From a virus: a stretch of 64,000 bases of DNA. Shown in pieces: positions 21,262 to 43,334 of the stretch. Each line of letters starts with the position of its first letter. The first letter of the stretch is position 1. The stretch covers positions 30,031 to 94,030 of the IMG/VR virus record IMGVR_UViG_3300044878_000051, one strand, 5' to 3'. The notes under the pieces are model-generated. The model ran no database searches and had not been told where the DNA came from. It saw only the letters and a list, made by a program, of their open reading frames with translations. The position numbers and the translations under genes were made by a program.

Positions 21262-22683
21262 TTACCTGCCGTGATGGATAAAGTTGGCGATCGTGGCGAT
21301 CATTGTGGAGGAGAGACTCACGTGTCCCGAGATTGCTCTAGGGGTACGCAGGTCCAACACACCGTTCTTGGGCGCCAGCGGGTCCAGCTTTTCCAGGGTA
21401 GTATGATCCAGAATCACAATGCCGTTCAGGGCATCGCCGTCAAAGTCAGCGTTCATCCCGGAAAGGATGTTCACAGACGGGCTGATGGTGTTGATTGCTG
21501 GATTCGTTTTAACACGTTTCACGTAGAGCCGTTGCGCTGACAGACGAGTCAGGGTCGGGTTCCGCTGGAAGATCACTGGAATACCGCCACGAGGCGCTTC
21601 AGCAATCAGTTCCTTGAACAGCTCATCAAGGAGCGGGTGGTAGCACAGGGTGTTCTCGAACAGAAACTTGTTAGCTTCGTTCGGGGTGTAGCCGCGTTTC
21701 AGTAGTTTGTTGGTCAGGTGAATCTTGAACGTCATCACCGACAGAGACCATGGAAGTTCCAAGTCTTCGTAGTGGTGAGGATCAGACAGCGAGGAAATCA
21801 CTGCACGGAAGGAGAAGCTATCCCGTGATCCAAAGATGTGCTTACGGTACCAACCAGGTTTACCGCCCAACTGTGTGGAGATAAACGGGGCATAATAAGC
21901 TACCAACATGTTCAACGCTTTGATCGTACGCAACTCGATCTCACGCTGACGCAGGGGTGTAGGTGAGTTCTCAATACTGCTGAACGCTCGCATGGCGTTT
22001 ACCGCTGGAGTCATCCCGGTGTCGGCGTAAGTGCCGGTAGCGGTGTTCTCCGTGATAAACGTGATACGACTCGGACAAGGCAGATACTTACAGAAGATCT
22101 CCTTACGGTACATCTCAATGAACGTGAGAGTGTCGTCCATTTGTTGCTGGTTCTTGTTGTTCGGAAGGATCTCCCGCAAGAACAGGTTCATCAACTGGTC
22201 AAAGTGACGGTAGAAGGTATTGATCCCTCGACCGAGCTGCAACGACTTGATGTAGTCCAAGACGTTGTTGGCGTCTTGGTTGGGCGGTTGATAGCCTGGG
22301 TTTGTAATCCAGTCCAGCAGGTTCACCCCTTTGTACAGGAAGATCGGTTTCAGTACGTGGAAGGCCCACGGGTTGATCAGTGTGTCCACGCCACGGGGTG
22401 TGGTGATCCACAGGAGCGATTCTAGCGGTCGTTCCGTAACAGACATACAGGTGAACCCGCAGTCGTCGCAGACAACCCCTACGTTGTGCTCGTACTTAAC
22501 CTTCTTGCACTCACATGACGGGATCACGTCCAAGGTATCACCCTCGTAACGTGACATGATCATGCGGTTGAGCTTCTCCCGGTCTTCTTCGGTAGTGACA
22601 TCGAAGTCGTTGATAATCACTGGAGCTGACGTCAAGCTATTGAACAACTCGTCGTGATCAACAATAACTGCTTCTACACCCAT
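21262..22683 (-). CDS. rpoC: Non-virion RNA polymerase beta' N-terminal catalytic subunit (phiKZ gp55-56.1-like), uninterrupted
   Basis: N-terminal zinc finger (CEC...CDDC), FQRNPTL and the catalytic NADFDGD motif; adjacent to chimallin. Confidence 0.93.
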   Translation of the reverse strand: MGVEAVIVDHDELFNSLTSAPVIINDFDVTTEEDREKLNRMIMSRYEGDTLDVIPSCECKKVKYEHNVGVVCDDCGFTCMSVTERPLESLLWITTPRGVDTLINPWAFHVLKPIFLYKGVNLLDWITNPGYQPPNQDANNVLDYIKSLQLGRGINTFYRHFDQLMNLFLREILPNNKNQQQMDDTLTFIEMYRKEIFCKYLPCPSRITFITENTATGTYADTGMTPAVNAMRAFSSIENSPTPLRQREIELRTIKALNMLVAYYAPFISTQLGGKPGWYRKHIFGSRDSFSFRAVISSLSDPHHYEDLELPWSLSVMTFKIHLTNKLLKRGYTPNEANKFLFENTLCYHPLLDELFKELIAEAPRGGIPVIFQRNPTLTRLSAQRLYVKRVKTNPAINTISPSVNILSGMNADFDGDALNGIVILDHTTLEKLDPLAPKNGVLDLRTPRAISGHVSLSSTMIATIANFIHHGR

Positions 22684-22759
22684 GGGAGGTTCTCCTAAAA
22701 ATACCGGACATAAAAAGAAAAGGGGCGCGAACGCCCCTTTCATTACCGCTTAGCCGAAC

Positions 22760-34238: not shown

Positions 34239-34691
34239 TTAACGACCGCACCAAGAGCGCTTGGTGCCACCGTCGTACGCAACTGCAAGACCATTCTTGA
34301 TCAGCACTTGCGCGATGTCTATATCGTCTACCATGACTTTGGACACGATTCTGAAATACTTGTCACGCTCAGGGGCCACCAGTCTAATAGTGGACGAGGC
34401 GTCGACGTACTTCTTCAGGAGTACCCGAGCTTGACGTGCCTTTGCTTTCTCAGCTTCTTGGTCAGCGACTGCTTTACAAGTGCTGTGCATCTCAGGCGCA
34501 TCAATGCCCGCAAGGCGAATCCCTACGTTCTTTCCGAAGAGGTCAGGAACCTCAGGGATGTTTACGTAGATCGTGTCGCCATCGTAAACTCTCACTACCT
34601 GTTTCGGAGACAACGTCAGATCGCTATAAGCGTAGACGCTGAATGAAGCCAGAGTAAGAATCAGCATTGCAAAGATATTGCGGAAGTTCAT
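34239..34691 (-). CDS. Thermonuclease (SNase-like) with a signal peptide
   Basis: VYDGDT, IRLAGIDAPE, DKYFR and LIKNGLA motifs; N-terminal hydrophobic segment ending VYA. Confidence 0.9.
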   Translation of the reverse strand: MNFRNIFAMLILTLASFSVYAYSDLTLSPKQVVRVYDGDTIYVNIPEVPDLFGKNVGIRLAGIDAPEMHSTCKAVADQEAEKAKARQARVLLKKYVDASSTIRLVAPERDKYFRIVSKVMVDDIDIAQVLIKNGLAVAYDGGTKRSWCGR

Positions 34692-34801
34692 AGTTACGCT
34701 CCAAGGGATATACAACATACTATCACTTGGGTATTCGTGTAGGCACCTGCTTCAGTCCCGCCTTCACCACGCTCTCGGGTGTGCGTCAAACTTAGTCAGG
34801 A

Positions 34802-34872
34802 GGCTCTCTTGTTGGAATCGAACCAACGACGGCGTTCGCGAGTCGCTACTCTACCATTGAGCTAAAGAGAAC
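34802..34872 (-). ncRNA. Degenerate tRNA / tRNA-like RNA with a shortened anticodon arm
   Basis: Canonical D arm (TAGCTCAATGGTAGAG) and T arm (GTTGG-TTCGATT-CCAAC); only a 3-bp anticodon stem. Confidence 0.6.
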
Positions 34873-35084
34873 ACTATTTGAAAGGGTGCCTTCTCTCAGT
34901 GTCGGGATGGGTTCTTTGTTTCCAGCGCAGATCCAAAACTACATTGAGAGAGAAGACATAACTCATTTACCCCATTAGTTCCCCTAGTTCTGATTACCCT
35001 GCGCGTCAGGTCGTTCGTAACTAGGGTAGGCGCGTACTGTCGCCTCGTTTTACTTCTGTTCCCTAAGGAACCTTCTAATGAGCA

Positions 35085-35211
35085 TCCCCGTGCCAAGATT
35101 CGAACTTGGGACCTCCACCGGACCCTCGAGTTAAACCCCCTTCATTACCTAAGTAACTAATGGTGGAACTCAAAGGCCCGACAGTGTTCTAACCGACTGA
35201 ACTAAACGGGG
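35085..35211 (-). ncRNA. tRNA-like RNA with the anticodon arm extended into a long stem
   Basis: Acceptor CCCCGT/ACGGGG, D arm TAGTTCAGTCGGTTAGAAC, T arm CCAAG-TTCGAAT-CTTGG; about 50 extra nt in the anticodon arm. Confidence 0.75.
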
Positions 35212-35641: not shown

Positions 35642-36535
35642 TTACGGCGTGTATTGCCACAGCGCAGCGAGCATTGGTGTATTGCTGCCACCGTGGACGT
35701 AGACCTTCCCGTTGTATGATACGGCAACTGCTTGGAACTGACGCGGGGTATGGGCTTTTAGCTTAATCCACACATTGCTGTCTGGATCGTACTTATAGAT
35801 GTCAGTGTTAGTCTGCGAGTTACCGCCACCGACATACATTTTACCGTCCACGACGCCGGCCCAGTGATCGGAGCGGGCGTTGCCGGTACCCGTGTTAGGC
35901 GCCAATACGCCCCAGGTGTCGGCTACAGTATCGTAGACCCACAGCATGTTGTTGTCAGCACTGGCAAACCCACCATGTAGGTAAATCAGTGTACCGATGG
36001 CAACTACTGTAGCGTCATAGCGAATCTGGGACATCGACGCCTTAGCTGTCCAAGTTCCGGCCACAGGATCGTAACATTGAACTGGTTGTGCAAGAGGCTC
36101 CGTAGTCGATCGACCACCCACCAAGTAAAGCAGACCGCCCACTTCAACCAATGATCCACGTTCGCGTGGGTTGGGTCCGTTAGGCAATTGCGTCCACTGA
36201 TTAGTAGCGGGATCGTACTTCCAGAGATCTTGTGTTCTTTGGCCAGTTGCGGGTAATCCACCATAAAGGTAAATCAACCCATTGACCGAAGCCATCTGTG
36301 ATGCATTTCGCGGTGGCGGACCTACCGCCAATTGCTCTACCAGTCGGGTGTCAAAGTTATACCGTATAAAGCTATCGGTCTTTACGTTCCCGTCCAAAAC
36401 ACCGCCATGGATATATAGCCAACCATCCAGCACTGTACCCGAGTGATCCCGGCGTCCTAAGTCTACATCCCCTAGGCTCACCCAAGAGTCGGTGACGACT
36501 GTGCGACCGCTCACATTTAACATAGCTTCCAGCAT
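35642..36535 (-). CDS. Kelch-repeat beta-propeller protein
   Basis: Six repeats of the (I/L/M/V)YxxGG...Y(D/N)...W pattern; MLEAML start has a GGAG SD. Confidence 0.9.
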   Translation of the reverse strand: MLEAMLNVSGRTVVTDSWVSLGDVDLGRRDHSGTVLDGWLYIHGGVLDGNVKTDSFIRYNFDTRLVEQLAVGPPPRNASQMASVNGLIYLYGGLPATGQRTQDLWKYDPATNQWTQLPNGPNPRERGSLVEVGGLLYLVGGRSTTEPLAQPVQCYDPVAGTWTAKASMSQIRYDATVVAIGTLIYLHGGFASADNNMLWVYDTVADTWGVLAPNTGTGNARSDHWAGVVDGKMYVGGGNSQTNTDIYKYDPDSNVWIKLKAHTPRQFQAVAVSYNGKVYVHGGSNTPMLAALWQYTP

Positions 36536-36626
36536 GAGCGTACTCTCCATATAGACATATCCATACCATGTCTACCTAGAGAGTGCTTACAAAGGACAGT
36601 CAACGATGACTACCCTCTTTAGAATG

Positions 36627-37344: not shown

Positions 37345-38169
37345 TTAACGACGGTTGCGGTTCATAACCTTGGCTTCGAGTTCAACGAACAACTCCATCG
37401 GGTAATCTTCCGGAAGGTTCACCGACACCGAAGTGTTGAAGGTTTCCGGGTTGATACCGATGCTGAACGGAGCTGCGGCTTGGCTACCGAGCGTACCGTT
37501 GATGATCCACTCGCCTTTGTGGCGAATAGGTCGTGAGTGGTTGATCGCAACTTCCACACCGTCACGGGTGACGATACGGATCAGCTTGATGGACTCGAGG
37601 GAGTCAGTGAGGTCCAGATCAACCCCAGTGCCACGGATCAAGACGAACAAGCTCTTGCGGTCACCATCCTTCAGCGGGATGCGAACCACGTCAGAACCGG
37701 GAGCTTCCACAACCTCTTCCAGGATCTGCCAGTCGTCAGCCAATTGATCCGACTGAGCCGGAATCCACGGGGTGAACATGTTCTGCGCAGTGCGCATGCC
37801 GATCCACGGAGCGAGTGTCGGACACTCGTTCTGACCGGGCTTGTAACCGATGGTCGCGCAACCCACGTCGTAATGACCAGGGGCAACGTAGACCAGCCAC
37901 ATGTTCTTACCGTTCCACGAAGGACGGGTAACACGCTTGCCTTGCTTCAGGGCTTCGATAGCCAGGCCGAAGTTCAAAGCATCGCTAGGACGATAGCTGT
38001 CCTCGAACACGGCTTTCGGCGACCAAGACTGGTGACCGTTGTCGTATTCAACCAGGTAGCCTTCGTCGGCACCATTTTCGTCAGCAGGGAGTTCCCAGCC
38101 TTTGAGTTGATTGTAATCCAACCGAGACATGGGTGTTCCGGTAACGCGCTTGGTACCGATGTAGTTCAT
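37345..38169 (-). CDS. tad2: Multidomain protein containing a Tad2/DUF2829 signal-sponge domain
   Basis: FGLAIEALKQGKRVTRPSWNGKNMW...PWIPAQSDQLADDW is the DUF2829 signature; extra N- and C-terminal domains. Confidence 0.8.
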   Translation of the reverse strand: MNYIGTKRVTGTPMSRLDYNQLKGWELPADENGADEGYLVEYDNGHQSWSPKAVFEDSYRPSDALNFGLAIEALKQGKRVTRPSWNGKNMWLVYVAPGHYDVGCATIGYKPGQNECPTLAPWIGMRTAQNMFTPWIPAQSDQLADDWQILEEVVEAPGSDVVRIPLKDGDRKSLFVLIRGTGVDLDLTDSLESIKLIRIVTRDGVEVAINHSRPIRHKGEWIINGTLGSQAAAPFSIGINPETFNTSVSVNLPEDYPMELFVELEAKVMNRNRR

Positions 38170-38178
38170 GGTCAATCC

Positions 38179-38527: not shown

Positions 38528-38665
38528 TTTTCTGAAGTTGACAAGGGAGAAAGGCGGCTCGTTTTATCTCCCGACTTGTACCCATGCACCTTAATGAACC
38601 ACTGGGCGGCTCCTTTGAGTGCGGTTCGGTCTGTACCCTACCGTCTGTCAATCAACTTCAAAAAG

Positions 38666-38817: not shown

Positions 38818-38899
38818 GGTGGAACCACCGGGAATCAAACCCGATTAGCCCGATCGACCTTTCAGCCTATCAGTCGCTTTAACATTAAGCTATAGTCCC
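38818..38899 (-). ncRNA. tRNA-like RNA with a G3:U70 acceptor and a GAAA-capped anticodon arm
   Basis: Acceptor GGGACTA/TGGTTCC+A; D and T arms present; anticodon loop replaced by GGCT-GAAA-GGTC. Confidence 0.65.
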
Positions 38900-39382: not shown

Positions 39383-39543
39383 TGGCCCCGAGGGGTGGAC
39401 TCAAACCACCGACCTATCCGTTCAACCGACTCCGTTTCACGGGAGAGTTTAGGTTGCACTGGCACTGCCGACCCCACGCATTAGCGTTCATGTCGTGATT
39501 ACCAGTGGTCTCGGACTGTTCTATCAACTGAACTACCCAGGGG
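39383..39543 (-). ncRNA. tRNA-like RNA with an ~90-nt two-hairpin insertion in the anticodon loop
   Basis: D arm TAGTTCAGTTGATAGAAC, stem GTCCG/CGGAT, AGGTC variable loop, T arm GGTGG-TTTGAGT-CCACC, GCCA end. Confidence 0.75.
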
Positions 39544-42180: not shown

Positions 42181-42372
42181 TCAGCCCATCCCGACACCAG
42201 AAGGACGGTTCTCGACCTGATGTTTCGCAGGATCGTAAACCACCTTCTCGTAGCAGTTGTGCCAAGGTTTTCCCAAACAGCAAGTGCAATGAAACGGTGA
42301 CGCCGCTGGTTTGCTCAGGAGTTCAATGACTCCGCACTTGTCGCAAGCGTATTCCAGCAGCGTGCCGCTCAT
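42181..42372 (-). CDS. Small Cys-rich putative zinc-binding protein
   Basis: CDKC...CTCC...WH; start overlaps the phuZ stop codon. Confidence 0.7.
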   Translation of the reverse strand: MSGTLLEYACDKCGVIELLSKPAASPFHCTCCLGKPWHNCYEKVVYDPAKHQVENRPSGVGMG

Positions 42373-43334
42373 TACAACACCAGGCCGTCGTCAGTAGTGG
42401 CAGCGTTGCCCACCAGATCGACAGCAGCAGCACGGCCATCACGGCGCAGGATGAAGTTGTCCAGAGTGGTCTGAAGACGCTCGTAAGTTTCGTTCAGGTT
42501 CTCGGTGGACACCACGAGGTGGACTTCGCTGACGCCTTCGATAGCGGTCTTGAAGTAACCGGTGCACGGATATTCCGGGATCGGCTCTTCCAGATGCTTC
42601 TGATCACGGTCGCTGTACAGCGAAGCGATGGTGATCGGGTCCTTGATGGCCTTGACGGCTTCAGGGTTGTAGAAGATGTCCAACATGGCCAGTTGTGCCG
42701 GCACGCTGGTCGAGTGGTTGAAACGCAGCCAGTTGGCAACGTCTTTGGTATCCAGCTCATCGTTCTGACGCGAGGTCAGGTAGCACAGGCTGGAGATGGC
42801 CAGGTGGAGTTGACCGTCGACTACCGAACGAGTGCAGTCGCCGCCGTTGTGGCGGTAGTGCATGACGATCGGGGTATCGACTTGCTTGGAGATGGCTGCC
42901 AGCGACTTGATGGTGTTCAGGCTGTTCTGTGCCGTGATGGTCGATTCCGAAGAACCCGCCAGCAGGACAACAACCGAGTGACCACGGGACGCCAGCTCTT
43001 TTGCCAGCAACGGGCCGATGACCGAACCCGAACCGCCGGATGCCGAGAAGACCACGATGTTGAAGTCTTCAGGAACTTGTTGCAGAAGGATCTGCTTGAC
43101 CGCTGCGGAGATCTGCGCGTGGTTCTCTTTACGCACTTTACCGGAGCCGTCGGTTTTGTCCAGGACGTAGATCGAGCTTTCGTCTTCGATGCCGGCCAAG
43201 TTGGAACGGCTGGTATCTACGAAGCTGACCAACGGTGTAGCGAAGCCAGGAGCTGGCGGACGACCGATGTAGGTTTTGACAATGTTCGTGCCAAGGCCAC
43301 CACAGCCGTACAGACGCACTTTACCTTGTTCCAT
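42372..43334 (-). CDS. phuZ: Tubulin-like spindle protein PhuZ
   Basis: GCGGLG, DTS, DGSGK, SASGGSGS tubulin signature and ELDTKD T7 loop. Confidence 0.95.
   Translation of the reverse strand: MEQGKVRLYGCGGLGTNIVKTYIGRPPAPGFATPLVSFVDTSRSNLAGIEDESSIYVLDKTDGSGKVRKENHAQISAAVKQILLQQVPEDFNIVVFSASGGSGSVIGPLLAKELASRGHSVVVLLAGSSESTITAQNSLNTIKSLAAISKQVDTPIVMHYRHNGGDCTRSVVDGQLHLAISSLCYLTSRQNDELDTKDVANWLRFNHSTSVPAQLAMLDIFYNPEAVKAIKDPITIASLYSDRDQKHLEEPIPEYPCTGYFKTAIEGVSEVHLVVSTENLNETYERLQTTLDNFILRRDGRAAAVDLVGNAATTDDGLVL

Follow-up and report, generated by a model that had tools for sequence, protein, structure and literature searches.

A tRNA-shaped element without an anticodon loop as the probable 5' module of a bipartite RNA in a phage tRNA array

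Introduction

In engineered tRNA scaffolds, a cargo is carried in the anticodon stem while the tRNA body provides correct processing and stability in bacteria. YrlA-type Y RNAs, whose partner is Ro60, are reportedly circularly permuted: a loop closes the acceptor, and both ends of the molecule lie in the anticodon-side stem. These bacterial and phage Y RNAs (RF02553) join an anticodon-less tRNA-like module to a second conserved module, as described by Chen et al. 2014 (PMC4201824). Theta ribozymes, which are HDV-like, lie directly downstream of phage tRNAs (PMC10879173).

Here we describe an element of a phage tRNA array that has the frame of a tRNA, lacks an anticodon loop, and runs at its acceptor end into a conserved structured domain. 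As in YrlA, an anticodon-less tRNA-like module is combined with a second conserved module, but here the first module has the normal tRNA order with an open acceptor end, and the second is a different, four-helix domain placed at that end. Rfam searches returned no RF02553 match around the element, and a search of five related phage records for a TROVE/Ro60 gene (PF05731), in which the positive controls gave matches, returned none; Ro60 could still be encoded by the host. Like the engineered scaffolds, the element is a tRNA body with a foreign hairpin instead of an anticodon loop, although it is natural, its anticodon-arm cargo is clade-specific, and a universally conserved partner is fused to its 3' side. 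It also recalls the tRNA-like domain of tmRNA, another non-decoding acceptor/T-arm module with a long helix leaving the anticodon side, but it has no G3-U70 (its 3:70 pair is C-G), no tag reading frame and no CCA end, and no pseudoknots were predicted for it, by methods that are unable to show pseudoknots. ARAGORN reported no tmRNA.

Results

Genomic context

The window, by which we mean the whole 64,000-nt stretch of DNA that was analyzed, comes from an IMG/VR virus contig of 94 kb whose completeness is estimated at 34%. Since the window encodes a PhuZ-type tubulin, we read it as part of the genome of a nucleus-forming jumbo phage. The element belongs to a minus-strand RNA island extending from about 39600 to 34800, in which ARAGORN found six ordinary tRNAs (Tyr, Asp, Asn, Ser-gct, Ser-tga and Ala) and with which several protein genes are interleaved. 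It starts nine bases after tRNA-Ser(tga), and tRNA-Ala is the next tRNA after the 3' domain and a spacer. A scan for promoters and terminators gave nothing beyond chance. The genes of the setting that are referred to here are as follows.

42372-43334: PhuZ-type tubulin, encoded in the window
37345-38175, minus strand: 276-aa protein with a central Tad2-like (Thoeris anti-defense) domain, interleaved with the RNA island
35642-36550, minus strand: Kelch-repeat beta-propeller gene, interleaved with the RNA island
34802-34871, minus strand: tRNA-Ala, the next tRNA after the 3' domain and spacer
34239-34718, minus strand: staphylococcal-nuclease homolog, interleaved with the RNA island

The island holds other unusual RNAs as well. 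Directly after tRNA-Asp, at 38533-38663 on the minus strand, is a second conserved structured RNA with a 12-bp closing helix that shows compensatory changes and a hairpin loop holding AUAAAACGAGCCGCC. It is also found in phages D6 and Psa21 and in four IMG/VR contigs, has no Rfam match, and has the string UAAAACGAG in common with the main 3' domain described below, with a different order of parts. At 39383-39542 (minus strand) lies a second tRNA frame, 160 nt long, whose D arm is nearly that of the element and whose variable loop is likewise AGGTC, but which has a different insert of ~95 nt and an encoded GCCA end; it is 76-81% conserved in three related contigs, the 3' half of the insert being near-invariant. 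An 80-nt tRNA-like gene at 38820-38899 (minus strand), missed by default ARAGORN, scores 36.6 bits on the Rfam tRNA model and has an 'anticodon loop' of 16 nt.

Fold of the element

The original prediction, made from the sequence of the window, placed at 35085-35211 on the minus strand a tRNA frame whose anticodon arm is an extended stem of ~18 bp. Coordinates, strand and stem were all correct, and the MFE fold of the 127 nt is exactly a cloverleaf plus this rod (-49.4 kcal/mol; z = -3.3 relative to 200 shuffles). The parts of the module are listed in the order of the RNA.

35085-35211, minus strand: tRNA-shaped module, 127 nt (MFE fold, RF00005 match, covariation in four orthologs)
35205-35211, minus strand: acceptor stem, 5' strand (read from the sequence)
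35186-35202, minus strand: D arm, a 4-bp stem with a 9-nt loop containing a GG dinucleotide
35115-35184, minus strand: extended anticodon arm ('rod'), 70 nt between D arm and variable loop
35167-35184 paired with 35115-35132, minus strand: basal helix of the rod, 18 contiguous bp, six of them G-U
35133-35166, minus strand: apical domain of the rod, mean identity 78% in the four genomes that have it
35110-35114, minus strand: variable loop AGGTC, 5 nt
35093-35109, minus strand: T arm, a 5-bp stem with the loop TTCGAAT
35086-35092, minus strand: acceptor stem, 3' strand (read from the sequence)
35085, minus strand: discriminator A (read from the sequence)

The D arm, AGGTC variable loop and T arm that had been predicted are present in the sequence and in a match to the Rfam tRNA model RF00005 (36.1 bits, E = 3.8e-6, in a search of 366 nt). 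Default ARAGORN and the whole-window Rfam scan missed the module because the RF00005 match, although above the gathering score of 29, appears only under lax filters and only if the alignment skips 68 nt locally at the anticodon arm. The acceptor, which had been called normal, is only partly so, with six good pairs among its seven positions and a U7-C66 mismatch. The nucleotides that make tertiary contacts in tRNA (U8, A9, A14, G15-C48 and G18G19) were all found in the sequence. Compared with canonical tRNAs, the module thus has the acceptor stem, the D arm with GG, the 5-nt variable loop, the TTCGAAT T loop, the tertiary nucleotides, and the location in a phage tRNA array; it departs from them in having no 5-bp stem with a 7-nt loop, no consistent anticodon, an acceptor sequence that is not conserved, and, instead of CCA, a 3' end fused to a structured domain. 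When the element was compared by BLAST with 50,697 phage records, the only matches were to the T-arm regions of ordinary tRNAs.

In place of the anticodon arm, the predicted continuous, G-U-rich helix with a further apical region is indeed found: its 18 pairs are uninterrupted, and the MFE fold confirms that a 5-bp stem closing a 7-nt loop is absent at the anticodon position. Because its G-U pairs correspond to C-A mismatches on the opposite strand, the helix exists only in the minus-strand RNA. Above the 18 bp, a UUU bulge leads to a 5-bp CCACC/GGGGG stem with one mismatch, and the apex consists of an AUUA/GAA internal loop followed by a 5-bp hairpin. Compared by eye with the kink-turn, loop E/sarcin-ricin and UAA/GAN motifs, the AUUA/GAA loop gave no convincing match.

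Sequence variation among orthologs

Three related contigs were fetched with PhuZ as the marker (PhuZ identity 86-96%), and each has an ortholog of the element at the same place, 74-82% identical. In the alignment of the four orthologs, 95.9% of the cells of paired columns are paired and 13 of the 37 pairs have changes on both sides. None of 500 shuffles matched this level of pairing and covariation, and sliding the structure by 1-3 columns left at most three such pairs; for the rod, the covariation comes from these four sequences only. Mean identity over the four is 0.95 in the D arm, 0.89 in the variable loop and T arm, and 0.78 in the apical rod, compared with 0.54 in the acceptor stem and 0.49 in the basal rod, which nevertheless stays paired. 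This pattern indicates that the elbow and the apical motif are constrained as sequence, whereas in the acceptor and basal rod only helix formation is under constraint. An acceptor stem that varies this freely is unlike that of a tRNA charged by one particular synthetase.

The apical rod has compensatory changes in its GYU/ARC, CCAYC/GRUGG and apical hairpin stems, and a scan of IMG/VR with a pattern of the apical motif matched only the same three related contigs. Retention of this motif, with compensation in three stems, suggests an extra binding site, which is probably lineage-specific. A sister contig of 112 kb (L021) shares the D arm, variable loop and T arm of the element and has almost the same stem at the base of the rod, but after nine pairs that stem is capped by a UUCG tetraloop in place of the rod. 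We infer from this hairpin that the ancestral state was already anticodon-less and that the rod is an insertion of ~49 nt at that tetraloop; on these sequence comparisons, the long rod is best seen as a clade-specific insertion, and as the least general feature of the element.

These comparisons bear on two readings in which the element would be a damaged or interrupted tRNA gene. An intron of ~50 nt, removed to give a decoding tRNA, is what ARAGORN proposes when introns are allowed ('tRNA-Ser(cga), intron 49 nt'), yet applied to the three orthologs the same option returns Phe-gaa, Ser-aga and 'Stop'-tta with differing intron positions, and the module lacks the long variable arm that a bacterial tRNA-Ser would have. 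We rejected an intron-containing tRNA because the ARAGORN -i isotypes are inconsistent across the four orthologs. Nor is a splicing route apparent. A group I intron had been ruled out beforehand because the insert is too short, which holds, and there are in addition no Rfam intron matches at E <= 10; the helix is continuous, so there is no bulge-helix-bulge, and 3-nt bulges are absent; an EndA-type (archaeal-type) splicing endonuclease was not found in five related genomes; and RtcB is absent from two near-complete (86%-complete) relatives of the window phage. With a UUCG tetraloop at the anticodon position, the sister contig has no anticodon to restore. All this leaves the intron reading barely credible. 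Full-length RtcB RNA ligases are encoded by D6 (21570-22721) and Psa21 (284881-286032), and since RtcB occurs only in these two it is not a constant partner of the RNA.

The other such reading, a tRNA gene that was inactivated by a palindromic insertion and now drifts without a function, would account for an insert that is a near-perfect hairpin and for the mismatched acceptor stem. Drift does not, however, explain why compensatory changes hold 95.9% of cells paired while the basal rod is down to 49% identity, why the elbow nucleotides remain 89-95% identical, or why the helix contains G-U pairs, which imply selection at the RNA level on one strand; the module is also conserved, together with the 3' domain, across distant phages. 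We regard a pseudogene as highly improbable, and both readings as effectively excluded.

The conserved 3' domain

The module does not end as a tRNA does. Its discriminator is followed, at the spot where CCA would be, by a two-base junction and then by a structured domain that is more widely conserved than the module itself, with 76-79% matches to Pseudomonas phages D6 and Psa21. The original prediction of a non-decoding tRNA mimic was therefore partly supported: the lack of an anticodon loop and the inconsistent ARAGORN calls agree with a non-decoding RNA, but the evidence does not favor a free-standing RNA of 127 nt, since the element runs into helix P1 of this domain.

35083-35084, minus strand: junction after the discriminator, a T followed by an invariant G with which the 3' domain begins
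34970-35083, minus strand: conserved 3' domain (R1), 114 nt (alignment of 28 sequences; model R1, 121 bits)
34872-34969, minus strand: spacer from the 3' domain to tRNA-Ala, with a long-range pairing of UCUUCUCUC with GAGAGAAGG

Twenty-eight distinct sequences of the 3' domain were collected by scanning IMG/VR twice with exact patterns and searching GenBank phages once; the pattern scans catch only those family members in which the core is nearly unchanged. Their alignment has 49 invariant columns, and compensatory changes occur in 19 of 29 pairs. The domain is closed by P1 (8 bp) and continues with the hairpin P2, a conserved 12-nt joiner (AGAAsUAAAACG), the 5-bp hairpin P3, and P4 (8 bp), which encloses an internal loop and P5 (CCUG-RCGCG-CAGG); its helices are connected by long invariant joiners. 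The NCGA/GUAA loop, compared by eye with known motifs, loosely resembles the bulged-G motif, and we make no claim from this. A covariance model, R1, gives every member 100-124 bits, with 121 bits for the copy at 34970-35083; these scores are high partly by construction because the model was built from the pattern-found sequences, and its E-values are rough.

Around the element, Rfam matched only tRNA, whether the whole window was searched at the gathering score or 6 kb and 366 nt were searched at E <= 10. The same was true of seven family loci, where there was no match to a ribozyme, riboswitch, Y RNA or tmRNA, or to the 3' domain. In the literature, searched with the conserved strings among the queries, we found no description of the 3' domain or of the two-part RNA.

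The family-wide pattern at the junction is acceptor-N73-G-C(P1). The window copy has one extra linker base. Its 3' domain starts 2 nt after N73, and within the window clade the spacing from N73 to P1 differs by plus or minus 1 nt. CCA follows none of the 28 family modules, as compared with 90 of the 106 canonical tRNAs of the same loci. In the single-sequence MFE fold of a 246-nt composite, the 5' end pairs alternatively with the 3' strand of P1, and we treat this pairing as due to chance because it cannot form in the orthologs. Beyond the domain, the pairing of UCUUCUCUC with GAGAGAAGG in the spacer is kept in four close relatives only and is invariant there, so it has no covariation support; going by the sequence, the spacer may be a third domain of the same transcript.

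Strong conservation of junctions and loops is typical of catalytic or ligand-binding RNAs, and the junction and loop nucleotides of the 3' domain are conserved very strongly. Could the domain be a self-cleaving ribozyme that would cut at its own 5' edge and so release the tRNA-shaped RNA? It occupies the same position as the theta ribozymes (PMC10879173), being likewise a conserved structured RNA directly 3' of a tRNA-type element in phage genomes, and its 5' boundary has an invariant G and C. Its covariation-supported fold, however, is a fully nested four-helix junction rather than an HDV-like double pseudoknot, and the HDV, hatchet, twister-sister, hairpin, pistol and hammerhead models gave no match even at E <= 10 in 366 nt. 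Unlike theta ribozymes, moreover, the domain follows only anticodon-less modules and not decoding tRNAs, the canonical tRNAs of the same arrays being without it. On this evidence, a self-cleaving 3' domain would seem very unlikely.

Distribution among phages

Directly upstream of the 3' domain, an acceptor-type helix of 7 bp and a hairpin of T-arm type could be traced in 27 of the 28 copies. In all 28, the parts come in one and the same order. The upstream modules were traced automatically, or by reading the sequence where that failed, and those traced end one base before the invariant G and the first C-G pair of P1. The interior between D arm and T arm is where they differ. One contig has a nearly canonical anticodon arm, Psa21 has an 8-bp stem with a 7-nt loop, and others have irregular inserts of 40-110 nt; the hairpins include one of 5 bp with a 3-nt loop and elsewhere have 6-9 bp with loops of 4-14 nt. 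In Psa21 and D6 the module is shorter than in the window phage, and the copy in D6 is annotated 'tRNA-OTHER'. The features that stay constant across the family are the stacked acceptor and T arm together with their elbow partner, the junction of two bases, and the 3' domain; the anticodon side is left free, and we accordingly read the element as the front half of a larger RNA and not as an independent mimic.

There is usually one R1 copy per genome, and one genome has two. In this jumbo-phage genome, a 310-kb IMG/VR contig with terminal repeats (L012:3247-3358), the two 3' domains are ~600 nt apart. They score 122 and 96 bits, and each is preceded by a tRNA-shaped module of its own, that of the second copy having been traced by eye only.

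Carriers of the family include jumbo phages (nucleus-forming, Pseudomonas) and phages of ~45 kb, including Vibrio phages. The exact core of the 3' domain was absent from 185,579 prokaryote genomes, and a looser core pattern matched those genomes once, in a 47-kb MAG contig that agrees letter for letter, over its element and the 260 nt before it, with a 455-kb IMG/VR viral contig (L032). As far as sampled, then, the family occurs only in phage sequence. When 1,268 ORFs taken from 29 loci were compared all-versus-all by BLASTP, distant members had no protein family in common, and the two largest 'families' returned were spurious ORFs overlying the RNA itself; the lack of a common protein family among distant members points to a conserved host partner.

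Two variants of the upstream module were observed. Six ~45-kb phages (L010, L011, L014, L020, L027, which is phage TPWB-08, and L030) have a distinct module in the ~110 nt before R1, with an acceptor stem, a short GG-containing hairpin instead of a D arm, the T loop UUCGAUA, and an interior of ~55 nt containing ACGAAC and GUAAUUACCC, strings that recall the internal loop of the 3' domain. In Vibrio phage 1.106.O (L028, 1866-2774), the 3' domain sits in a gene-free gap of 900 nt between divergent operons, and the helix and hairpin that precede it have a non-canonical 'T loop' of 11 nt.

The family also allows us to weigh the idea that the module acts alone. A cut after the discriminator, by RNase Z/BN or by RNase E and exonucleases, would free a 127-nt look-alike that could serve as a sponge or inhibitor for tRNA-binding proteins, for example host anti-phage anticodon-arm nucleases, and in that case the 3' domain would form an RNA of its own or would serve only in processing. 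RNase Z-type enzymes accept a non-CCA sequence after N73, such as is found here, and the tRNA core and elbow of the module are fully canonical. Genes of anti-defense type surround the locus (e.g., the Tad2-like protein at 37345-38175), and a double-stranded rod without a loop would presumably resist nucleases that cleave anticodon loops. Against this, 28 sequences share a strict 2-nt junction, its G invariant, and a P1 that opens with a C-G pair, which speaks for a single folded unit; the anticodon region is so variable in the family that it fits mimicry of one specific target poorly; and a pure processing element would not need 49 invariant positions. We therefore think a released decoy unlikely.

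Discussion

We prefer to read the element as the tRNA-shaped 5' module of a bipartite, non-coding phage RNA of ~243 nt (35211 to ~34970, minus strand) with the roles proposed below, and we consider this somewhat more probable than not. We are much more confident that the element is the non-decoding module of a bipartite RNA than we are of those roles.

The bipartite RNA would be transcribed within the phage tRNA array, and its two modules would stay joined. RNase P needs no more of its substrate than the acceptor/T-arm minihelix, and it grips a tRNA at the elbow, as do several other tRNA-binding machines. RNase P would cut on the 5' side of the module, as for the neighboring tRNAs, to leave a defined 5' end. 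The module appears to have kept the features by which a tRNA is folded and handled (the acceptor/T-arm minihelix, the D-loop/T-loop elbow and the core tertiary nucleotides) and to have lost those used in decoding and charging (the anticodon loop, a conserved acceptor identity and the CCA end). What is left could act as a compact, nuclease-resistant handle that the tRNA-binding machinery of the host may recognize.

Since the acceptor/P1 junction brings together the 5' end of the RNA and the 3' end of P1, one helix could stack on the other; one strand would then be nicked, and the opposite strand would bulge by two bases, N73 and the invariant G. Stacked in this way, the 3' domain would sit where the aminoacyl end of a tRNA would be. 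We propose that it is the effector part and acts on or with a conserved host component, a role suggested by its conservation: it is near-invariant across very different phages and is accompanied by no protein gene, as would be expected of an RNA that engages such a component. The anticodon arm would point away from the end that carries the 3' domain and would be free to vary, and in the window phage and its close relatives it would have grown into a rod.

A more far-reaching version of this proposal, which we hold to be doubtful, is that the RNA represents a new class of phage effector RNA or else a new class of ribozyme. As an effector, its tRNA handle would put the 3' domain, at the site of the aminoacyl-CCA, into a host tRNA machine; the ribosome, RNase P, a synthetase or a tRNA-targeting defense nuclease would be candidates, to be blocked or redirected, and the rod would be a clade-specific second binding site. 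As a ribozyme, the 3' domain could act on the 3' end of tRNA.

Phage tRNA arrays are usually read as a codon supply or as anti-defense spare parts. Our findings indicate that a conserved RNA with no decoding function is encoded in part of such an array, and that it combines a tRNA chassis with a domain absent from catalogs. Genes of this kind are missed by tRNA finders or are assigned arbitrary isotypes, as with the 'tRNA-OTHER' of D6, and this distorts phage tRNA counts and inferences about suppressor tRNAs or recoding. The near-invariance of the 3' domain from Pseudomonas jumbo phages to phages of ~45 kb, including Vibrio phages, together with the lack of a conserved protein neighbor, points to a universal host target. 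Because the RNA is carried by cultured phages, namely Psa21 and D6, both of Pseudomonas syringae, and Vibrio phage 1.106.O, its role is directly testable.
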